DNA from: Nitrosopumilaceae archaeon
GTDB lineage: Archaea; Thermoproteota; Nitrososphaeria; Nitrososphaerales; Nitrosopumilaceae
Reading direction: 5' to 3'
DNA length: 64,000 nt
Assembly (NCBI GenBank): GCA_965207375.1
Contig: CBDBMG010000003.1
Location: 704,001 to 768,000, forward strand
Under the pieces are notes generated by a model. That model was given only the letters and a program-made list of their open reading frames with translations. It did not search any database and had not been told where the DNA came from. A program made the translations under genes and the position numbers. Below, one piece after another: positions 8,869 through 63,349 of this stretch; the stretch's first letter is position 1, and each line of letters starts with the position of its first letter.

Positions 8869-8873
8869 CTATA

Positions 8874-9426
8874 CCGTACGTGGGAAAATTTTGGAGTGGG
8901 AAAAAATTGGCGAATTTGGCGAATTGTGGTCTCTTCGCCAATATTTTACCCGCCAATAATTTCTTTTCGGAAACACAAAATTATTTCAGTAACTGAAATA
9001 CAAAGCACTCTCCTTTTACTATAGCTAAAACGCTTACACAGTAAAACGGACGCTTAATACACCGTTAGCTACTCCTTTTCAACCTTGTTCACAAGACGCT
9101 TCGTTTACTAAGGTCACGCCCATCAACAAAATCGATTCAACACAATGAAACCTGCTGTATAAGCATAGCGAATAGCTATAGAAGTTGGTTAACCAATCAC
9201 AGAGGGTTCAATTTCACAAGAAAACGTGCAAACGCTCAAATTACTGGTTACGCGCTTTTAAGTTAAGCGCCTTCAAACGGCGATTATTATTACTAATTAC
9301 GCGCATCCAAAGTATATTTGTAAACAATTGGCCAACTCAGCTCATTCGCCAATATTTTACCCGCCAATTGGTTCAGGTTAGCCTATTCGCCAATATTTTA
9401 CCCCTCCAAATTTTTCCCACGTACGG
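8874..9426. mobile_element. Tc2/pogo-type MITE (CCGTA..TACGG termini)
   Basis: TA|CCGTACGTGGGAAAATTTTGGAG ... CTCCAAATTTTTCCCACGTACGG; internal TTCGCCAATATTTTACCC repeats; the right-hand TA is missing. Confidence 0.8.
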
Positions 9427-9551
9427 GAAAGCATGGCATGTCTGTTAAAGATTTCCTCAAAGGAGTCGATTCCTCAAATAAACAAATGGAAGCAAATCTT
9501 TCAATTATGTTTCAATCTGTTAGGGGCACAAAGCAATACTGGTTTCTTAAG
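9427..9551 (+). pseudogene. Helitron/Helentron Rep-domain fragment
   Basis: MSVKDFLKGVDSSNKQMEANLSIMFQSVRGTKQYWFLK matches the (L/V)RG(S/T)xQYW motif that precedes the HUH motifs of RepHel proteins. Confidence 0.6.
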
Positions 9552-11982: not shown

Positions 11983-12402
11983 GTGAGTCACACCAGTTTA
12001 TTACTTTTTGTCATCCAAATTTCAGGTGTAGAGTGATCATTAATTTTAGCTAGTATGAATATTGGCAAATGGGACTACTGTTTTAAATGGATTTTTATCA
12101 TGTGATTTTCTACACATTGCCTTAGGATTACATTTTATCATTTTATAGAAAAATATCAGTAGATTACAGAAATATATGTAGATCAGGGGAATATTGTGTA
12201 GCATTTAATGACAGTTTGTTGAAGCCAATGGAGTTTAATCCACTCTATAAGCTATTTATATGCCTTGTCGTTGTATTTTTATAAAGATAAGTGGCATTAT
12301 GATAGCAGGTTGTACATTTCTCAGCCATTTATAGGTATAAAAAGAATAAAATTTAATATGTACGTACATATAATGCAGTGGTAGTCTGCATGTAATTGGT
12401 AA

Positions 12403-12525
12403 CATACATACATACATACATACATACATACATACATACATACATACATACATACATACATACATACATACATACATACATACATACATACATACATACA
12501 TACATACATACATACATACATACAT
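12403..12525. repeat. (CATA)n microsatellite
   Basis: Pure tetranucleotide array. Confidence 0.97.
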
Positions 12526-12682
12526 AGTAATTGGTAAATCTAAAACACAGTAGACTGTAGACAGTTCATGCCTCTAATATCAATAGCAGCTAAGCTGAAT
12601 AGCTTCAAAGGAGGTGTGAAGTTGCAAACAGTAAACAACACTCCTCAGCCCACCTACAAGATGAAATCACAGCATTGATGGA

Positions 12683-44090: not shown

Positions 44091-45332
44091 CTTATGTACA
44101 CAAAATACACCTATTCATATTACAGTATGTATTTCCTTTACTGTTTAAGATTTTAGAAATCTACAAGTTGCATGAGATTCCCTATGAAAAGCTGCATAAA
44201 TGGTGTAAATTTTATTAGACTCCTATGATTAGTTATAAAGTTATTCAAGTTCAAAATCTCAAAATGTGATCAAATTTTATGTGTATAATTTTATTATAAG
44301 CCTTGTTTTCTCATGCTGGGTCACATATATAATAATCGTAAGTGGCAATTGGTCCAAAATTAAGATGCAGTTATAACGGGAGTAAAATGTTTGAGAATTC
44401 ATTATAGAATGGTTTGATGCTATTTCAACTTAATTATTAAGTATTGTAGTCTCCATGCATGATCCATACAGTGTAGCAGACTATTATTCACACCAGACTG
44501 TCTACAGGAGTATACGTAGCTATTGATCAATCATATTTCCTATTCCGAATTATTACAGGCTTGTTACAAGCCAAGGTGTCAGAGGTGGGATATCCTAGGC
44601 CTGATCAGGCCTTCAAACCACTCATGCTTACCTGTAAACCTACAAGTTCATTAACAAAAATATATAATCTTACTAACCATTCAGGGGGTACTCTATACAT
44701 CTATTGCAGACACCTCAAATAAAACACGATTATTTACCTCATGCAAAATTAATGCATTCAACAATTACCTCATCCAACTGTATAATTATGTTTACGTACG
44801 TATACATATGTATGCTTATGCATGTGATAATAGTAATACTATAGCTATAGCCACATATATAATTATCAGTATTGTTGATGATAATTCACCATATTCAATA
44901 ACAATGAATGACAAAAATCTATAACTGTATAGTTTGTTAGTGAATTGTTACCATATGCATAATTATTATCATCATATAATAGTCACAAGTTAAATTACCA
45001 TGTACTGCATGTATGTACAGTGACATATCTGTAAATCTTGGGCTTGTTGGCAAAACATGACTAGGCTTAATAAACCAAAAGTTGATTAATCACATTTAAC
45101 AGAGTAAGGGACTAAGGGGAATACGTAGCTGAATAGGAGGGGAATATTTAATGTTAGCTCGGAAGCTATTTAAGTGTGGGAACCAAAAAGATGTAGCAAA
45201 ATACACATTTTTATTGAAAAATTAATTCCTATGGAAATTTCATTAAAAATACAGGGAAAATGACCCCACTGACCCCCTATTCTGGCACCCACATTTATAT
45301 GTGCATATGTCTGTGTGTGTGAGAGTGTATAT

Positions 45333-45990
45333 GTGACAGAGCCTGAGAAAACAGGTCTTATTTACACATAAAATTTGTTCAGTATTTCAAATTTAACAGC
45401 TAACTCTTTTCCTAACACAGTATTTTCACATACGTTTTATCATAGCTACATGTATAATTATATGTAGAAATTCCTAAGGAATTCAATAAAACTAACAGAG
45501 TTTGAATAACATACACAGATAAAGAGATATATATATATGCATAATATGAATAGGTGTATTCTATGTAGTTTCTCAGGCCCGGTCACATATGTATATATAT
45601 GACCGGATTTGTGAAAAGGGGTCTTATAATACACGCATCCAATTTTCAACTTTAAGGAGATGTAACTCAGCTTGTAGTTGAGCTACAGCTTTGAAATTTT
45701 GTGACAAGACTTTCCTATCTTGAACTAATGTGGGCAAAAATTTTAATGTAATAGCTTAATCACAAACAAAGTTATGACTCATCAAAGTCATAAAATTGGA
45801 AGTGTGTATAAGACCCCTTTTTGCAAATCCAGTCACATATGTGACCCGGCATGAGAAAACCGGGCTTATGTACACAAAATACACCTATGCACATTACAAT
45901 GCATATCTTCTTCACTGTTTAAGATTGTAGACATCTACAAGAAATCTATCTTTAAGTAACTGCCAAATACAATTTTATGTACGTAAGTAC
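45333..45990. mobile_element. Cluster of three adjacent TGTGAC..GTCACA MITEs
   Basis: Termini at ~45333/45588, ~45599/45838 and a third start at 45840; relatives at 11411, ~44090-44325, ~49547 and ~57085/60220. Confidence 0.65.
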
Positions 45991-52545: not shown

Positions 52546-52664
52546 GTAAGAATAAAGTGCATTCCCAGATAGGATTTTCATATTTCAGAATTGGGCTGGA
52601 CAGACCAGATTATTAATACTGACCGTACTTTATTTTAGGATCAAGGCATTCAAATGATTTACTA

Positions 52665-54354
52665 CCGTATAGCGGATTAATTTTGAGGGGGGAATTTCGA
52701 GGATAGGCTAGTATAAATTGTTCGTGAATAAACTTTCGAGGATTAGCTTAGTGTTGTTTTAGTTAATCAAAACTAAAACTAAAAATAATTTTAGTAAAGC
52801 AGTTATATTTTAGTTAACTAAAACTAAAACTAAAACTAAAATTAATTGCAAGTCAGTACTAAAACTAAAACTAAAACTAAAATTAATTGTGAGTCAGTAC
52901 TAAAACTAATACTAAAACTAAAATTAATTGTGACTCGGTACTAAAACTAAAACTAAAACTAAAATTAATTGCAAGTCAGTACTAAAACTAATACTAAAAC
53001 TAAAATTAATTGTGAGTCGGTACTAAAACTAAAACTAAAATTAATTGTGAGTCAGTACTAAAACTATAACTAAAACTAAAATTAATTGCGTGTCAATACT
53101 AAAACTAAAATTAATTGCAAATCAGTACTAAAACTAAAATTAAAACTAAAATTAAATGTTAGTCAGTACTAAAACTAAAACTAAAACTAAAATAGAATGT
53201 AAATTTTTACCAAAACTAAAACTAAAAGCATAACTAAAACTAAGGGTAATTACGTCTTCAAATGGCATATATGATGCAACATAATGCTGTTTAAGCCTGT
53301 TTTAAGCCTGTTTTTACTCAATACTAAAACTAAAAATAGTTTTAGTAAGACATTTTTATTTTAGTTAACTAAAACTAAAACTAAAATTAATTCAGAAATA
53401 TTACTAAAACTAAAACTAAAACTAAAAGTATTTAGAGATATAACTAAAACTAAAACTAAAACTAAAAATACTTCAGAAATCTAACTAAAACTAAAACTAA
53501 AACTAAAAATACTTCAGAAATCTAACTAAAACTAAAACTAAAAATATTTCAGAAATCTAACTAAAACTAAAACTAAAACTAAAAATATTTCAGAAATCCA
53601 ACTAAAACCAAAACTAAACTAAAAATAATTCAGTAATCTTACTAAAACTAAAACTAAAACTAAAATTATTGAGCTAAATTACTAAAACTAAAACTAAAAC
53701 TAAAAATATTTCAGAAATCTTACTAAAACTAAAACTAAAACTAAAAATAATTCAGTAATCTTACTAAAACTAAAACTAAAACTAAAATTATTGAGCTAAG
53801 TTACTAAAACTAAAACTAAAACTAAAATTACAAGCCCTTACTAAAACGACACTAGATTAGCTAACACAACCTATTCACAGATAAAATTTGCTATAAGGTA
53901 ATCATCATAAGACTGCACGCTATCCAGTGGTTAATGGCACCCTGCGCTAAAAGTAGCCTGGTGGTCTGGCCATCCATGCTTTTCAAGTTCTGGTATAGCT
54001 CTTCAATATTTGTTTTCGCTCCAATTCTGTAAGTATTCCTTTACACTGACACTACTGCTCGATCGCCTGTAAATTTGGATATTTCATGCTTGGGCGGATA
54101 TTTGGTACACAAAATTGTAAACTTCCAGCAGGCCGCACTGCATGTAGCTGCAATGCCATGCTCAGCTGTAAATTCAGCTCTGCTTTTGCTGAATCCTTGG
54201 AATAAGCTCCACTCTTGTCTAGCGTGGCTTTCCACATCATCTGTCTCCCGTGACCACAACTATTCAGTAGTTTTCGTAGTTTAAATTTCAAAGATAGAGC
54301 AAAATCCGTGAAAACCTTGAAAATTTCCCCCCTCGAAATTAACCCGCTGTACGA
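52665..54354. mobile_element. Tc2/pogo-type MITE hosting a nested hAT MITE
   Basis: TA|CCGTATAGCGGATTAATTTTGAGGGGGGAA ... TTCCCCCCTCGAAATTAACCCGCTGTACGA|TA. Confidence 0.75.
52749..53854. mobile_element. hAT-type MITE composed largely of (ACTAAA)n arrays
   Basis: TIR TAGTGTTGTTTTAGT / ACTAAAACGACACTA; perfect 8-bp TSD GATTAGCT (52741-52748, 53855-53862). Confidence 0.88.
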
Positions 54355-54680
54355 TAATCATCTCCAATACCCGGTTAAGTTTAGACTTCTTGTGGTGTGG
54401 TTGTGTAATTCGGGATGTTCATCAGATAAGGCGCCCGGCTATGTAGGTCTTTATAGGATGTAACGGCATTGATTAACATGTGGTTTATATCGGGTACAAG
54501 CCATATAATGATGAAGAGGACCAAGGCGCATAAGTTTATACTTACTGATGTTGAAGTTCATAATCAACTGCCAACAGATGGAGTTCAAGTCATTTGGAAG
54601 GCCATAGTAGATCATCATCGCTGTTTCTAATTACCTGAAATTTTAGTTTCATCTGTAAACGCATACATGACACTTGATAC

Positions 54681-56366: not shown

Positions 56367-57267
56367 AAACAGGAGCTATAGTTATTATACTCTGTCAACC
56401 ATAATATAAATAATCACATGCATTATTTGAAAAACTCTAGTATAGCTAGCTATATAGTTATATTTCAACCAGTATTAGTTAATACATAGCTATACATCTG
56501 GTTCTGTAGTACATAGCTATGTTTTGCATCTAGCTGTTGTATATACATAGCTATATAGCTAGCTTTATCATTTTGTACACATACATTAGGCCATCAATGC
56601 TGCTATTAGTAAAATCAAAATGGATATATATTTACCTGTGGTCACTAGCTAGCTACAGGAACCAATAGTTATTATATTAAACCGGAGGTTAATAACAGTG
56701 GGAGATTGCACCACCTAGGTTTTGTGGTTAAACATTGCAAGTTTGAATACCAGTTCGGGATGCGTCTCTATTTTAGCTACTTATTTTTCTTTCAAGAATA
56801 TCTTTTCTATTTCCAAAATTTTGCTTATACGTAGCTACAACTACATGTATATCTAGCTATATAGGTATCTCAAAAACCATAACATCTTAGCTATACCCAT
56901 AAAACACATAACATTATATTACTACCCTTATTGAGCCCACATATGGTGCTTGCAGCCTTGCATTCCATACCGCCCCTTTACTGGATGTGCAAAACAATTG
57001 GCACTAATTAGAGTAGACAAATAATTGAATGTAACTTGTGAATTATAGGGAGTTTCAAGAAATCCTATACGTATTTAAAATCGAGTACGAAAACAGGTCT
57101 TATCTGCACATCCAAGTTTATGACTTTGAAGACACATACCGTATAGTAAAAAACTTTGGCGGTAAAAAAGTTTGGCGAATTTGGTGAATCCCCTACAATT
57201 CGCCAAAGTTTTTGTCGCCAATTGTTTCTAAATAATCACGTGATACAATTCTGTGCCACGCGTGTCA

Positions 57268-58702
57268 TAAAGTCTATCCTTCATTACTTTAAGTCTGCAC
57301 TAAAGGACGACGAAACGGATGTTTCTCTGCCTAACCCGCATGGACCTTTAAGCAGTAAGATGCCATCTGGAGCTATCGAAATCGCCAATAAGAAGGTGGC
57401 AGAAATTGTTGCGCCACCAACTGCAGCCGATTCGGAACCTACAAGTAGTTCCAGGAAGCGTTACATCAAGTTGACTCCAGCGCAAAGATTTACTGTTGGA
57501 AAACGGGCAGCTGAGCACGGAACAACAGCAGCAATGAGATATTTTTCTTACAAGTATTCCGGCAACTTCGCTTCGTTGAAGGAGACCACCGTCAGGAGGC
57601 TGAAGACTCAGTACCTAGAGCAAGTCTCTCGTAACGATAATTCACAACAAGGTGAAAGCATCCAAGAACTACCTCTAAAGAAAAATGGACGACCACTTAT
57701 GTTAGGCGAATAACAGGTTAGGGAATACATAAGGGATCTACGGGCTCAGGGTGTTGTTATAAATACAGCAGTTGTGTTAGGTGCTGCAGAAGGGATAATT
57801 ATGCACAAAGATGCAAACTTGTTGTCATCATTTAATTTGATAGAAGGCTGGGCAAAGTATCTACTGAGAAGAATGGGGTTCGTAAAAAGAAAGGGAACAA
57901 CTAAAGCAAAAGGATCTGTTGAACACTTTGAAGAGGTGAAGAGAAAATATCTACAAGACATGGAACTAGTCATCGCCATGGATGAAATTCCAGACGATCT
58001 TGTTGTTAATTTTGATCAAACAGGGGTACATTATATTCCGGTTTCAGACTGGACGATGGCTGAGGAAGGGGCAAAACGGATAGAAATTGCAGGCAAAGAT
58101 GACAAAAGACAGATAACTGTGGTCTTTGCTGGGTCAATGGGTGGCGAGTTTTTACCTCCACAATTGGTATATGAGGGGAAAACAACACGCTGCCTGCCCC
58201 ACTATAGCTTTCCATCAGGATGGCACGTGACTTATTCGGCCAACCATTGGTCAAATGAAAATACGATGAATGAATATCTAGAGCACATTATTTTACCATA
58301 CATCCGTAATAAGAGGGCACAACTGAAACTTGCTGAGAATTATCCAGCATTGTTAACTTTCGATAATTTCAAGGCACAATGCACTGCCCCCATCCTGACC
58401 CTCCTTGATCAAAATAACATTAATGTTGTCCTGATCCCCCTAATTGTACCGACCGGCTACAGCCTTTAGATTTAAGTGTCAATAAGTCAGCAAAATCTTT
58501 TCTGCGAAATGAATTTCAAACTTGGTACGCTAAGCAAGTTTGCTCACAGTTACAAGGACAGTCCGAGAATAAGCCTGTTGATTTAAGGCTTAGCATAGTC
58601 AAGCCCTTAGCAGCTGAATGGATGAAATCTTGTTATGACTACATCAAAAGCAAACCCATTATTATTCAAAATGGCTTTAGAGAAGCTGGAATCTTGAAGT
58701 GA
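57268..58702 (+). pseudogene. pogo-family DDD transposase (HTH, CENP-B-like HTH, DDE_1)
   Basis: NFDQTG, TFDNF and QPLD triad; DKRQIT and NHWSNE motifs; in-frame stop at 57711-57713 and a frameshift at ~58440 (IPPNCTDRLQPLD). The start position is approximate. Confidence 0.92.
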
Positions 58703-58853
58703 CTACCTCACACTTTATAACAGTTGTGATTTCCAATAATTGATAATTACCAATACTTTAATCATACATTATATATATGCTAATCAATTTCATATATATA
58801 TATAGTACATTTGATCATTGATTTGTATAATATTATGATAAGATACTGTACAT

Positions 58854-59902
58854 TTAATAACATGGAAAAGGGGATATTTGCTTTTGATTAAAGCAATGTA
58901 CCAGATGCATTCTCATAGCAGATTGATCTAAGTTTTGCTTACTAGGTTGTAATCCAAAGGCTATAGCTGTTGCAAAGGCAATAGCAAATAACCCACAATC
59001 CTTTTTCCCTTTTTGTTTCTGACAGCGGCCCATTGTTATCTGTGGTTTTGGTGAGTTGGTAGTACCAAAAAGATGATGAATGATTCTGATTGTTTCCTTA
59101 TCACAATAAGTAAACAATGAATCAAAAGCTTTTACCTCTCCTAGCTTGCAATTTACAGTGGTGACTGTAATCCAGTGGTGTCTTTCATGACAATGAACAA
59201 TTTGGACATTATTCACAGGGTTGTTTTCTGCAGTAGCTTCTCTCCTTTCCTGAAAAAGCGTGGATCTGAGTCCATTTAATCCAGGATGTTGTGTCTTTAG
59301 CAACTCCTGTGCTAAGTTAATCTCAATGTCAGACAATTCCTGGCCCATTATGATTTGCTCTTCACTAAAGATTTTCAGTTTTTTACTCGGAGGAGATTGA
59401 TCAGTGTCTTGAGCTAGTTCAGTCAAGTCTATAAAAGGGTCAGAACCGTCAGATTCCATAGCCAATGCATCGCTAATGTCAGGGGTTGGTGTGTGAGTAG
59501 TACATTCTGCACTTTCTTTTGGCTTCATACCCAACACTGATTCAAATATACGCTTAGTCTTAGCCTTTTCTTTCTCTTCTGCTGCTACAAATGTTAAAAC
59601 ACAGGGCACCTCTAACCCCCCTTGAGGTAAGTCCGACGAATAGCGTCGGTGCCCATTTACTTCACAAAGTATCATTCCACCTCGCCTTAAAAAATTGAAC
59701 AGAGTGAAGATATCTTCTTAGCAATATGCCCCACAATTGTTTGTACTCCTCCAATATCTTTTTTGATCGCCACAGCATGGGTATCGTAAGCGTTTCAAAT
59801 TTCACGCTCGCACAACAGTTCATCACTGCGCGATGGGTTTTCCCAAATGGTTTTGTATTGATGATAACCTCTAATCATCGAATCCACGCTGAAACTGTAC
59901 AT
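58854..59902 (-). pseudogene. HIRAN-like domain fused to a Ulp1/C48-like cysteine protease
   Basis: From ATG 59902: SMIRGYHQYK..W...LLCERE.*NAYDTHAVAI...IVGHI..KIS (HIRAN-like), then QIVH...HW, FDSL and QKQ...DCGLFAIAFA (H-D-C triad plus oxyanion Q). One stop (~59795) and a 1-bp deletion (~59690). Confidence 0.82.
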
Positions 59903-60700
59903 CGCAATCGTCGTTTGATACCGCACGAGGTCCGGTGCATATTAAAAAGAATTAAAATGATATCATTATAGATTCGCCAAAGTTTTTTTGCCAATTTTTT
60001 ATATAAACAAATTCGCCAAACTTTTTTACCGCCAAAGTTTTTTACTATACGGTAGCTAACTCACTCTATAGATACGTAGCACAAAATTGATACCTGAGAG
60101 ACTAAGCATATGACTGTAAAATTAATGGCGGATTGTTAGCTTATTCACAGGAGAAGTTATGGTTCACTGAATGTGCGTAATTGGATGTGCAGATAAGACC
60201 TGTTTTTGCAGACTCAGTCAAATAGCTTTAATGTAGTTCACTTGCCTTTGACACCTCTGGGATTAGTGGGTCTTTTTTCCACCACCATCAGTTGATTGTG
60301 GTGGGGTTGGTAGTTGTACGAGGGCTCTGTCCACCTGAGGAAACCTAACCAAGTCTAAGGCTGGGACTGAATTCGGAAGGTATATATATACATAAACATA
60401 TATACACATTTTAAATCAGGCAGATACCTAGAGGGTAGCTAGCTAGTTTATTGGATGGCTGAGGGTTATCCTCTGTTTAAACACTGCTTGGGTGTATCAG
60501 GCCAATGAAAGGCACATTAAGTGGCTTTCCACCCAAGCATAGACCATAACCGCCTGCTGATAGGCACAATAGCTACAGTTTGTACATGCACATACGTATC
60601 ACGATAAGCAATAGCTATGTACATATATAATATATATACGTATACATACGACTACGCTAAAGAAACTGGGATAAGAAGGTTATATGATGATACAAGACAG

Positions 60701-61399: not shown

Positions 61400-62988
61400 T
61401 TATTTAACGGATAATAAAGTTTCTTGGAATAAGTGGTGAAATTGGAGGGAAGTCCAATCCAGCTGTTTGGGAGAGACGAGTTTAACTGCTGATGGAGGTA
61501 TGCTGGTTGATTGTTGAGATAGTGTTGGGGTGGATATAAAGGCTTGGGTTAGGTTTCCACGTGAAAGGTGATCCGCAGTGACATTGAGTGCACCTGGTAG
61601 GTGAGTAGCTGTAACCTGAATGTTGAAATGTGCCACAAAGAACCATAAGCACCGAAGGAGGTGCATCACTAATTTGTCCTTGGATGAGCCCTTGTTGATG
61701 GCCACGACGAGGCTTGCATTATCACATTGAAAATTGATATGGCGCTGAGATAGTTGCACTCCCCAAACGATACAAGTGAATAGAATGGGTATCAGCTCTT
61801 TTGCCATGATTCTAATATCGGACCACTCCCGTGGCCATTGCCATTGCAGCCACTGGGAACCCAACACTGCTGCGCAGCCCCATGTCCCTGATGCATCTGT
61901 GTTGGCTAAGAAATCTGGGTTGGCAGGGATTGTAAGAAGGTGTGCCACCAAAGTAGGTCCGAGCGGAAGGCAACATTCAGCCTTGTGATAAAGTGCATCT
62001 TACGAAGTTTGGCTGCTGTTGGATACATTCGTGCCACAAAGGCTCTGCCTGGTCTGATGACCTTAGTGGCGTGCTGGAGGGTACCCACTAGCGACAAGAT
62101 CTCCCTCTTTGAGGCTTTTTTCCTTGGTATCCAGGTCTGGAGCAGTGCTTTCATTCTGATGAGCTTATCTGATGGCAGTCGGATTTCCATACGGTCAGTG
62201 TCTAGTATGATTCCTAAAAATGACAGTGATGTTGAAGGCCCCTCCAGTTTTTCAGATGCTAATGGGACTCCCAAGTCTGCACATAGGGATATAAAGATGT
62301 CTAGATTCCTTTGGCAAATGGCCGATGCTGGTGGTCCCATTGTCAAGTAGTCATCCAAGTAATGAATGAGATAAGACACTCCGGCATTCTGGGCAATCCA
62401 TGAGAGGAGATCGGCGAGGATGTTAAATAACTTGTGTGCTGATCGAAGACCGAATGGGATACAATGATCAATGTAGATGTTATTCTTCCAATTCATTCCT
62501 AGGAGGTGTCGGTCTGCTGGGTGCACTGGCAGTAACCGGAATGCACTTTTGATGTCAATCTTCACCAATATTGTTCCTCTTCCGGATTGCAGAATGCTTA
62601 GTATAGCGTGGTCTATGGTGACGTAAGAAAGGCTGCACAAAGCCGGTGAGATTCCATTATTAACGCTGCCGCCTGGTGGATATGACAGGTCAGTGATGAG
62701 GCGCCATTTGTCTGGCTGATGATTCTTTGGTATAACGCCAAATCTATTGATGTGAACATCTCCGCATCTTGAGCTTGGGTATGGACCTGACATCTGTCTT
62801 AATGCTAGTTCATGAAGTATATAGTCTTCTACCACTTTGGGTTGGGCAACTGTACTTTGAAGATTCTTCTTGATTGACTGTAGCTTGCTGCCACTGAATC
62901 CTATTCTGAAGCCGGTGAAGAGACTCTGTAGGAAGAACTGGACCAGGCCTTGATATGGGTAACTACGTAGGTGATGATCCCAAGCCAC
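61400..62988 (-). pseudogene. DIRS-type reverse transcriptase and RNase H (frameshifted junction)
   Basis: KWRLITDLS, KIDIKSAFR, PFGLRSA, HYLDD and FLGI; then TDASG, IMAKEL, CDN and N..AD.LSR. Confidence 0.92.
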
Positions 62989-63349
62989 CTTAATCAGTGG
63001 GCTCTCTATGCGAGTGGCCTCTGGAGGAATCTTTGTGGGGGCTGATACCAGGGGAAGGTGGTCCAGCCACTCTGGTAGCCATTGTTGATACGGCGTACAT
63101 GCTGTGTTCTGGGTCGATTCAAGTACACTCTGAAATATTTTATAATTTTAATAACGATATGAACTAGTACCAGATGATTCATATACCTTGTACATATCAA
63201 TATGTATTATAAGGTCACAAATCATATAAATTTTTTTACAGATAAATATACTTAACAAGTACTACAGCAAAAGGTAATATACTTAACAAGTACTACAGCC
63301 AAAGTCAAGGTACGTAAAGAGGTGGTGGGGGAGGGAGGTTGGCTCTGAC

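Follow-up and report, generated by a model that had tools for sequence, protein, structure and literature searches.

Pogo and Tc1/mariner elements are regarded as the simplest transposons, with one gene each, and genome engineering employs them in that capacity. The locus described here raises the question whether some pogo elements possess a second gene as a working part and, if so, what its product does. The window analysed is a stretch of 64,000 nucleotides from an assembly of a Nitrosopumilaceae archaeon (GCA_965207375.1, contig CBDBMG010000003.1, positions 704,001 to 768,000, forward strand). It contains a transposon in which a transposase gene faces a gene for a protein with a HIRAN-like and an Ulp1-like part. 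A conserved and widespread second gene would mean that some pogo elements manage their own DNA ends, or the repair and SUMO pathways of the host.

Architecture of the element

The element spans positions 57139–60052 (2,914 bp) and its features are collected in Table 1. A reading made earlier from the sequence alone (the sequence-only reading) had described perfect 45-bp terminal inverted repeats (TIRs) and a TA target-site duplication around both genes, and an inverted-repeat search and a shuffle test agree with this description. The inverted arms at 57137–57183 and 60008–60054 are 47 nt each and 100% complementary, corresponding to TA plus a 45-nt TIR per side; a search with a 39-nt core of the TIR gave exactly two matches in the window and matches in 0 of 100 dinucleotide-preserving shuffles. 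The sequence outside the TA differs between the two flanks; hence, the target-site duplication comprises TA only. The CGCCAA copies of the left subterminal region would likely be extra transposase-binding sites. The second gene, described before as convergent, intronless and of about 350 codons, was indeed found inside the TIRs and is read on the minus strand, opposite the plus-strand transposase. Neither blastn nor tblastn turned up another coding copy in the window. It was also observed that a small palindromic repeat encloses the entire pogo element.

Table 1 Features of the pogo element (positions within the window)
Feature	Position	Strand	Remarks
TA target-site duplication, left	57137..57138		
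Left 45-nt TIR	57139..57183	+	Begins CCGTATAG; TTGGCG lies in each of two direct repeats (57156 and 57172)
Left subterminal region	57197..57234		Inverted CGCCAA copies of the TIR motif, at 57201 and 57216
Pogo transposase pseudogene	57267..58702	+	Stop 58700-58702
AT-rich spacer	58703..58853		151 bp, separating the two convergent 3' ends
HIRAN-Ulp1 accessory pseudogene	58854..59902	-	Intronless; ATG 59902-59900, stop 58854-58856
Clan-CE Ulp1/SENP-like protease domain (predicted)	58857..59363	-	Coordinates projected
HIRAN-domain part (predicted)	59529..59902	-	Roughly residues 1-125 with the C-terminal helix; domain seen on the intact, 88%-identical P0002; coordinates projected
Right subterminal region	59975..60007		One more CGCCAA motif, at 59975
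Right 45-nt TIR	60008..60052	-	
TA target-site duplication, right	60053..60054		

The transposase and the state of the copy

The transposase is read as two ORF pieces in one frame, separated by a TAA at 57711–57713, and a third piece in another frame. Its intact relative P0122 is composed of 480 amino acids, and the window copy differs from it at 10 of 477 aligned residues (97% identity). In comparison with P0122, the window has ATA (57267–57269) at the position of the start methionine, a 2-residue deletion that generates the in-frame TAA, and a loss of 1 bp in a run of C (58436–58440). The DDE_1 family (PF03184, cut-off 22 bits) is matched with 29.3 bits by the piece at 57714–58466 and with 52.5 bits by P0122. 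The catalytic residues D252, D368 and D404 (P0122 numbering) are kept in 73/73, 73/73 and 71/73 sequences, respectively. The last two are 35 residues apart, a spacing inside the range of 29–56 that a pogo survey gives for the last two acidic residues in this superfamily (Gao et al. 2020, PMC7386202). For the helix-turn-helix family HTH_Tnp_Tc5 (cut-off 22.2 bits), the window piece scores 16.6 bits and P0122 barely exceeds the cut-off with 23.1 bits; the transposases of two related loci, L002 and L007, gave no Pfam match to a Tc5/CENP-B-type helix-turn-helix at E ≤ 0.01. The earlier assignment of the element to pogo is supported by the sequence, in which the DDE_1 domain, the DD35D spacing, the TA duplication and the TIRs are all present.

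The accessory gene has an in-frame TGA at 59795–59797 and lacks 1 bp in a homopolymer at 59689–59694, both defects falling inside the HIRAN-domain part. The ORF of 273 amino acids listed at first is the ATG-initiated portion of a stop-to-stop frame of 287 amino acids. It had been proposed that repair of one stop and one 1-bp deletion extends this ORF to the ATG at 59902; both defects were located, and the frame runs on as predicted. An intact accessory relative, P0001, was found, from which the window differs at 7 of 334 aligned residues, so that intact relatives of both genes (P0122 and P0001) exist at 97–98% identity. As the transposase is broken as well as the accessory gene, the whole window copy is dead, and the evidence goes a long way toward establishing it as a young but dead two-gene pogo (DD35D) pseudo-element.

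Domains of the accessory protein

The Pfam family HIRAN (PF08797) was matched in 60 of 67 full-length homologues at E ≤ 0.01, the best value being 4.9e-8, and was not matched by the window's own N-terminal pieces, which are too short (34 and 28 aa). The relative P0002 scores below the cut-offs of both HIRAN (16.1 bits, cut-off 24.7) and Peptidase_C48 (20.5 bits, cut-off 20.7). An AF2 model of this two-domain protein (pLDDT 88.6) was compared with known structures by Foldseek, the check that had been proposed for both domains, and matches to HLTF HIRAN (6kcs_A, E 1.3e-5, TMt 0.79) and to the protease SENP5 (9gnx_A, E 7.6e-6, TMt 0.62) were obtained, with Ulp1 (1euv_A) also matched. Over the HLTF HIRAN structures, TMt ranged from 0.68 to 0.79. 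Sequence-profile searches of the PDB returned no HIRAN entries; the full profile gave weak SENP/Ulp1 matches only, and a profile of the HIRAN-only form gave just chance defensin matches (E about 1). Asn37, Gly58 and His59 are invariant in the accessory family and Asp40 is nearly so; the conserved Asn/Asp motif is a putative equivalent of N90/N91 of HLTF. Both the Pfam matches among the homologues and the structural comparison point to the N-terminal HIRAN-like domain that the sequence-only reading had recognized, and the modelled N-terminal part of the protein has the HIRAN fold.

In the form of about 350 amino acids, HIRAN is connected to the C-terminal protease by a disordered linker in which a basic patch is found. 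The window ORF matches Peptidase_C48 with 24.7 bits and P0001 with 24.9 bits (cut-off 20.7), and the family was matched in 52 of the 67 full-length homologues. Pfam matches to other clan-CE families were also seen among these 67 (YopJ 13, RickCE 4, ElaD/SseL 2); the best fold matches of the protease domain are SENP and Ulp1. SUMO is thus only a candidate substrate, contrary to the deSUMOylase type named in the sequence-only reading. H247 and D265 are each conserved in 65/67 homologues, and the oxyanion residue Q301 and C307 in 67/67. The window frame retains all four of these residues, including the H/D/C triad that had been reported as intact. With a profile score over the cut-off, SENP/Ulp1 fold matches and the catalytic residues kept, the proposal that the second gene encodes a C48/Ulp1-like protease stands, and sequence and model together support an accessory protein in which HIRAN is joined to a predicted clan-CE C48/Ulp1-like protease.

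Relatives with HIRAN alone

At four related loci (L001, L002, L005 and L007), the accessory gene encodes a HIRAN protein of about 118 amino acids without Ulp1. HIRAN-only ORFs of 118–139 aa were found in L001, L002 and L007, and in L001, L002 and L005 the space up to the transposase is too small for a protease. The Pfam HIRAN scores (cut-off 24.7 bits) were 32.8 for L001, 31.2 for L003, 24.0 for L007 and 20.2 for L005, with no match for L002. An AF2 model of the HIRAN-only form (pLDDT 88.9, pTM 0.81) gave 16 Foldseek matches in the PDB at E ≤ 1e-3, all of which are HIRAN or the HIRAN-like 3k2y, the latter being the top match; TMq to HLTF HIRAN was 0.69–0.73. Among HIRAN-only candidates of 64–205 aa, 482 of 488 match at E ≤ 1e-3 (counted as clusters), and 93 of the best 120 candidates have a size of 110–130 aa. 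The two-domain profile found 1,331 representatives at E ≤ 1e-30. As HIRAN occurs alone at four loci, it is HIRAN and not Ulp1 that is the constant partner, and the protease is an optional add-on.

These relatives bear on an alternative that places the functional core in the Ulp1 protease, directed against SUMO-dependent silencing, and in which HIRAN just targets the protease to DNA. The catalytic residues, kept in 65–67 of 67 homologues, are in line with this, as are the abundance of the two-domain form (231 clusters at E ≤ 1e-3) and the recurrence of Ulp1 domains in Ginger1 and Mutator DNA transposons, as given in the available text of PMC2836005. However, HIRAN stands alone beside a similar transposase in four loci, two of which are intact elements, and HIRAN-only proteins are no fewer than two-domain ones (482 clusters). 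Since HIRAN-only elements exist, a protease-dependent function cannot be the common one. Anti-SUMO silencing as core function, suggested in the sequence-only reading, is hence weakened by L001, L002, L005 and L007, and a protease core seems unlikely.

Linkage and co-divergence of the two genes

The seven related loci (L001–L007) were picked by the HIRAN motif, and the sample is thus biased toward HIRAN-bearing elements. It was found by tblastn that a convergent pogo transposase adjoins the HIRAN gene in five of the seven (L001, L002, L005, L006 and L007), and the same search detected no nearby transposase in L003 and L004. In L002 and L007, both genes are intact and lie within complete TIRs that begin with CCGTATA and have TA on either side. 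The shared layout spans families whose transposases are just 43–58% identical. On comparing the match lists of the accessory protein and the transposase, nine contigs of equal size, putatively identical, were seen in both; four of these have 2,926–4,505 bp and come from one source. The loci largely establish a lineage in which TA-flanked TIRs (5'-CCGTATA) enclose a transposase gene and a HIRAN-protein gene that read inward from opposite ends. It could be argued that the second gene is a separate element that landed in a one-gene pogo, and nesting is seen at this very locus, where the pogo lies within the palindromic repeat. Yet an internal inverted repeat bracketing the second gene was not found in the window element, and the gene has an identical position and orientation in L001, L002, L005, L006 and L007; a nested insertion is next to impossible.

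The sequence-only reading had also called for a comparison of the cargo and transposase trees and for a check of selection on the cargo. The transposase and HIRAN trees of six intact pairs have one topology, with modest support values (61–80) in the six-row HIRAN tree. Mantel tests on maximum-likelihood path distances gave r 0.60 with an exact p of 0.0097 for the six pairs and r 0.36 with p 0.066 for nine pairs; on percent identity, where the identities are near-saturated and one accessory protein without HIRAN is included, r was -0.36 (p 0.99). For diverged pairs with saturated pS, the HIRAN gene showed pN of 0.24–0.36 and pS of 0.76–0.95, and the transposase pN of 0.31–0.35 and pS of 0.82–0.84. 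Measured by these sequence comparisons, with pN about 0.3 against pS about 0.8, the HIRAN gene is constrained as strongly as the transposase. As both genes co-diverge and are under equal constraint, it was concluded that the HIRAN gene belongs to the functioning machinery of the transposon rather than to its cargo.

DNA transposons are known to capture genes, and with both genes of the window copy broken, the second gene could be viewed as a host HIRAN-Ulp1 gene that was captured once and plays no role in transposition. Such passive cargo is nevertheless very improbable, given a layout common to families at 43–58% transposase identity, congruent trees, pN as low as that of the transposase with pS saturated, and invariant key residues. 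The integral two-gene system that had been proposed is upheld by the recurrent position and orientation in 5/7 loci, the co-divergence and the constraint, which indicate neither a nested insertion nor a one-off cargo.

Proposed function

Cleavage by pogo/Tc1-type transposases gives the excised element 3'-OH ends and leaves the broken donor site with 3' overhangs. According to PMC11237066, HLTF HIRAN binds to 3'-OH ends and, as an isolated domain, has a dominant-negative effect by which end resection is blocked. By analogy, the reading preferred here, with a probability of roughly 60%, is that of a two-gene pogo lineage whose HIRAN protein would act at 3' ends and where Ulp1, if present, would be carried there. 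The transposon HIRAN protein would bind the 3' ends made by the transposase, and could then keep host end-processing factors, HLTF-type remodelers among them, away from the reactive ends and from the post-cleavage complex; alternatively to shielding, it may steer the repair of the donor gap. The Ulp1 module, where it exists, would be brought to the ends and might remove SUMO or another ubiquitin-like modifier from local repair or chromatin proteins. A more specific version can be offered only tentatively: an animal pogo lineage would encode its own end-binding factor, in which HIRAN caps 3'-OH ends and competes with HLTF-type processing, and the Ulp1-fused form would also strip SUMO from repair or silencing proteins.

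The HIRAN protein could instead be a transpososome subunit with a structural or regulatory task, where it would bind the transposase or the duplex TIR and subterminal repeats, or dampen transposition, with no role in 3'-end capping or host repair. The strict co-inheritance of the HIRAN gene with the transposase, the TTGGCG/CGCCAA motifs repeated at both element ends, and the PDB match 6kcs, which is HIRAN on duplex DNA, would suit such a subunit. PIF/Harbinger elements, composed of a transposase and a Myb-like protein, also require a second DNA-binding protein, as demonstrated in Harbinger. The best-known activity of HIRAN, though, is the recognition of 3'-OH ends, and a purely transpososomal role appears quite improbable.

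If action at 3' ends is true, the HIRAN protein would be without precedent as an end-binding accessory factor among eukaryotic Tc1/mariner-pogo elements, and it would form a natural counterpart to the dominant-negative isolated HIRAN domain. The conserved second gene would provide a compact natural HIRAN protein for studies of 3'-end recognition and a testable tie between transposition and the choice of repair pathway, and it would give a name to a large protein family that carries no label as yet in assemblies of marine invertebrates and in MAG bins.

Comparison with known systems

No paper retrieved by the literature search describes the pairing of HIRAN, Ulp1 and a pogo transposon. For 'HIRAN domain' with transposase, nothing on eukaryotic transposons was retrieved; pogo, Ulp1 and transposase together led to Ginger and Crypton only, and HIRAN with Repbase gave nothing.

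The element resembles the pogo superfamily described by Gao et al. (2020; PMC7386202) in DDE_1, DD35D, short TIRs next to a TA duplication, a length of 2.4–3.1 kb and, with scores around the cut-off at best, a Tc5/CENP-B-type helix-turn-helix; its particular closeness to the DD35D families Passer and Fot lies in the spacing alone. That text speaks of pogo elements with 'one or two ORFs encoding transposases', and the terms 'protease', 'second ORF' and 'additional ORF' are absent from it. Unlike the pogo elements surveyed there, the present ones have a separate, convergent non-transposase gene that is conserved.

With Ginger1 and the ULP1-domain Mutator-like elements, as presented in the accessible text of PMC2836005, the element shares the property that a cut-and-paste transposon encodes a clan-CE Ulp1-type protease, for which a role in repair or in ubiquitin-like pathways has been proposed. 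In Ginger1, the transposase carries the protease as a domain at its own C-terminus (PMC2836005). In the present case, in contrast, the protease belongs to a separate gene, is fused to HIRAN, occurs in another superfamily and is dispensable in sister families. Zisupton and CACTA are further Ulp1-bearing DNA transposons.

The transposon HIRAN has the same predicted fold as HIRAN of HLTF/Rad5, with TM of 0.64–0.79 to HLTF HIRAN crystal structures and with PF08797 matches; conserved Asn/Asp and Gly-His motifs are present, and the likeness to HLTF is one of fold and profile and not of aligned residues. HLTF carries HIRAN together with a SWI2/SNF2 motor and with a RING domain, whereas the transposon HIRAN stands alone or with a cysteine protease. 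As a small single-domain protein, it is like the stand-alone HIRAN of bacteria and phages (lp_0118, PDB 3k2y; phage proteins in BFVD), but its genetic context is a eukaryote-type pogo transposon. The viral fold library BFVD gave separate Ulp1-like and HIRAN-like matches, with phage HIRAN proteins among the latter, and none of the matches convincingly covers both domains.

Ciliate TBE/Tec elements are multi-ORF elements according to the text available of PMC7325037. The two-gene pogo is like these and PIF/Harbinger in having a second, co-inherited non-catalytic protein within the TIRs, and differs from them in both the protein family and the superfamily.

Structure of the window copy

The pogo element lies in gene-poor, repeat-rich DNA (see the table), and the perfect 45-nt TIRs and TA duplication described in the sequence-only reading were recovered as 47-nt arms. 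A 39-nt core of the TIR is present at exactly two places in the window (64 kb) and absent from all 100 dinucleotide-preserving shuffles, and the target-site duplication is TA, since the flanks outside it differ. The element was assigned to pogo on account of this duplication and of the domain and triad features of its transposase. Pfam DDE_1 matched the window piece with 29.3 bits and P0122, an intact 480-aa relative, with 52.5 bits; HTH_Tnp_Tc5 missed the cut-off in the window (16.6 bits) and narrowly passed it in P0122 (23.1 bits). The catalytic Asp columns are kept in 73/73, 73/73 and 71/73 aligned transposases, with a spacing of 35 residues between the last two (DD35D). One transposase relative comes from the sponge Amphimedon queenslandica.

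The transposase frame has ATA at the position of the start Met in P0122 (97% identical), an in-frame TAA (57711-57713) produced by a two-residue deletion, and a C-run (58436-58440) short by one base. In the accessory gene, intact relatives confirm the two repairs proposed earlier, of a stop and of a 1-bp deletion: between P0001 (341 aa) and the window protein, 7 of 334 aligned residues differ, and P0002 (354 aa, 88% identical) has the same N-terminus and an uninterrupted frame across both defect sites. Both window genes are intronless, as they are collinear with intact relative proteins. The copy is dead in both genes, and it is young, given its perfect TIRs and a protein divergence of 2-3% from intact copies. 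The earlier observation was confirmed as a whole, and the main interest lies in the lineage that the copy reveals, less so in the dead copy itself.

Features of the window and of two intact elements from other loci
Feature	Position or size	Strand	Description
pogo element including TA	57137-60054		inverted repeat, 47 nt per end (TA + 45 nt), perfect
Transposase frame	57267-58702	+	three defects
Accessory gene	ATG 59902 to 58854	-	in-frame TGA 59795-59797; one base lost in homopolymer 59689-59694
Inverted repeat bracketing pogo	57090-57115 / 60181-60206		26 nt, perfect
Weak relatives of the flank	45330-45375; 45773-45821		~80% identity
MITE-like non-coding pogo relative	8869-9431, ~560 bp		47-nt TIRs, 87% complementary
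Non-autonomous element	52663-54356, 1.7 kb		35-nt TIRs, 86% complementary, starting with CCGTATAGCGG after TA
Reverse-transcriptase fragment	61906-63147	-	413-aa open frame, RVT_1 45.9 bits; retroelement fragment just downstream of pogo
Long (ACAT)n / (ATAC)n microsatellites	20107-21397; 38625-39316; 12402-12526		up to 325 copies; spurious ORFs in six frames
402-aa open frame	28615-29823	-	no Pfam match
Neighbouring frames	28143-28619; 29986-30492		no Pfam match in either
L002 element	2,404 bp		26-nt TIRs; both genes intact
L007 element	3,135 bp		37-nt TIRs; both genes intact

The bracketing repeat is probably a small MITE-like element; its arms come to lie ~150 nt apart once pogo is removed, which suggests that a palindromic repeat of this small MITE-like kind was the insertion site of pogo. 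The TIRs of the 8869-9431 element start with CCGTACGTGGG and carry TTGGCGAAT-type repeats, which identifies it as related to the pogo family, though non-coding; no coding match was found in it. The interior of the 52663-54356 element is a minisatellite of 41-bp period (52817-53830), with no transposase match. Since both of these non-coding elements in the window are relatives with termini of the pogo type seen here, the lineage has been active in the source genome.

Linkage of the two genes

Seven loci with a HIRAN gene (L001-L007) were retrieved from a species-representative genome collection by a single search pattern, one conserved HIRAN peptide, and all seven come from records labelled MAGs. 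ORFs of at least 100 aa starting with ATG cover 0.11-0.31 of their bases, which is not bacteria-like; the exception is L002 (0.70), which is essentially the element alone. The DNA of these loci is probably host DNA in MAG bins. The record titles of L001-L007 are those of bacterial MAGs, but the loci, contigs of 0.2-2.6 Mb included, have eukaryote-type pogo elements, CA microsatellites and very low ORF density, and look like host DNA, probably marine-invertebrate, binned into bacterial MAGs.

A pogo transposase was found directly downstream of the HIRAN gene, on the opposite strand, in five of the seven loci; none was found at L003 and L004. The L002 and L007 termini read CCGTATA...TATACGG between flanking TA dinucleotides, which is the terminal motif of the window element. 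At L003 (5001-5576), the HIRAN ORF runs on for ~70 residues that show no relation to the Ulp1 domain, with no transposase nearby, and may be a decayed copy or have a different C-terminal extension. Nine 'longest contig' sizes were common to the best 120 of 231 accessory matches and the best 120 of 374 transposase matches; four of these are short contigs from one source (2,968, 3,175, 2,926 and 4,505 bp), presumed from size to be the same contigs.

Six of the pairs have two intact genes, and for these the ML trees of the transposase and the HIRAN domain had the same topology, ((L002,L007),(c2926,(c3175,(win,c2968)))), where win is the window element and c2926, c2968 and c3175 are further pairs; the chance expectation is 1/105 unrooted topologies, and support was 87-100 for the transposase and 61-80 for HIRAN. 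A Mantel test on ML path distances gave r 0.60 (exact p 0.0097) for this set; with broken or partial genes admitted, which raised the number of pairs to nine, it gave r 0.36 (p 0.066). A cruder percent-identity test, run earlier, had given r -0.36 (p 0.99). Between loci, where synonymous sites are saturated, the HIRAN gene had Nei-Gojobori proportions of pN 0.24-0.36 and pS 0.76-0.95 and the transposase of pN 0.31-0.35 and pS 0.82-0.84, and by these values the accessory gene is constrained as strongly as the transposase. It was concluded that the pairing is integral: the five loci, the two elements intact within their TIRs, the common contig sizes, the congruent trees and the low pN bear out the two-gene system proposed earlier.

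Domains of the accessory protein

The window ORF matches Peptidase_C48 with 24.7 bits (cut-off 20.7); Pfam gave no HIRAN match on its N-terminal pieces, which are too short. Among 67 full-length homologues scanned singly, HIRAN was matched in 60 (best 4.9e-8) and C48 in 52, other clan-CE matches being YopJ (13), RickCE (4) and ElaD/SseL (2). An AlphaFold2 model of P0002, built from the homologue alignment (mean pLDDT 88.6), has two folded domains joined by a disordered linker (145-171). In Foldseek searches against the PDB, the N-terminal domain matched HLTF HIRAN structures (6kcs_A, E 1.3e-5, TMt 0.79) and the C-terminal domain SENP5, Ulp1 and SENP2 (9gnx_A, E 7.6e-6, TMt 0.62; 1euv_A). Asn37, Gly58 and His59 are invariant in the HIRAN part, and the protease residues His247 (65/67), Asp265 (65/67), Gln301 (67/67) and Cys307 (67/67) are kept. 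The sequence-only reading was right in calling both domains; its interpretation held for these and for the integral pairing, while the deSUMOylase activity it assigned is plausible but unproven.

In L001, L002, L005 and L007, the accessory ORF stops ~20 residues past the HIRAN domain (118-139 aa); that the first three lack a protease follows from the gap of only ~130-280 bp between the HIRAN ORF and the transposase 3' end. The L007 protein model (pLDDT 88.9, pTM 0.81) had 16 PDB matches in Foldseek at E<=1e-3, each of them to either HLTF HIRAN or 3k2y, a small protein from bacteria. Of the 488 candidates in a HIRAN-only search over the range of 64-205 aa, 482 matched at E<=1e-3, and 93 among the best 120 of these matches are 110-130 aa long. 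The four elements form one group on the transposase tree (SH-aLRT 90.7), with the two-domain L006 adjacent, and transposases of two-domain genes are scattered across the remainder. The HIRAN tree is compatible with one clade of HIRAN-only proteins (AU p 0.75) but does not positively demonstrate it. As HIRAN-only elements occur in four loci, HIRAN is the constant partner of the pogo lineage, within which the protease was gained or lost. A basic P-x-K-K-x-K-like patch lies in the linker of 45 of 74 long homologues (loose pattern), and in the HIRAN-only proteins the C-terminus forms a basic helix; both features would fit action in the nucleus or close to DNA.

Possible role of the HIRAN protein

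Pogo/Tc1-type transposases generate 3'-OH transposon ends and leave the donor site with 3' overhangs. On the most economical reading, the transposon would encode a 3'-end-binding protein of its own, which may shield DNA ends or the post-cleavage complex or, alternatively, bias donor-gap repair. In some families, HIRAN would also bring a clan-CE protease to 3' ends, where SUMO might be stripped from proteins at primer ends, favouring homologous repair and restoring the element at the donor site; this idea is modelled on yeast PCNA-SUMO/Srs2 biology. A less likely reading is that the HIRAN protein is a regulatory or transpososome subunit. HLTF HIRAN is described as binding the 3'-OH end of single-stranded DNA, a function lost in the N90A/N91A mutant, and the isolated domain as a dominant negative that blocks protein removal from the cut end and end resection (PMC11237066).

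Comparison with known elements

The two-domain family counts 21,525, 9,731 and 1,331 representatives in public data at E<=1e-3, 1e-10 and 1e-30, the first of which surely takes in unrelated HIRAN or C48 proteins; it is large, yet without a name. No link between HIRAN and a eukaryotic transposon was found in searches of openly available full-text papers. Term searches of two pogo surveys found no 'protease', 'second ORF' or 'additional ORF' in the text of PMC7386202 and no 'protease' in that of PMC7325037, which mentions additional ORFs only in one general statement and for the ciliate TBE/Tec elements. Known carriers of Ulp1 domains are Ginger1, where the domain is fused to the transposase, and Mutator-like elements (PMC2836005). 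The element described here belongs to a pogo lineage in which a HIRAN(-Ulp1) accessory gene is conserved, and its transposase shares the DD35D spacing of Passer and Fot (Gao et al. 2020; PMC7386202).
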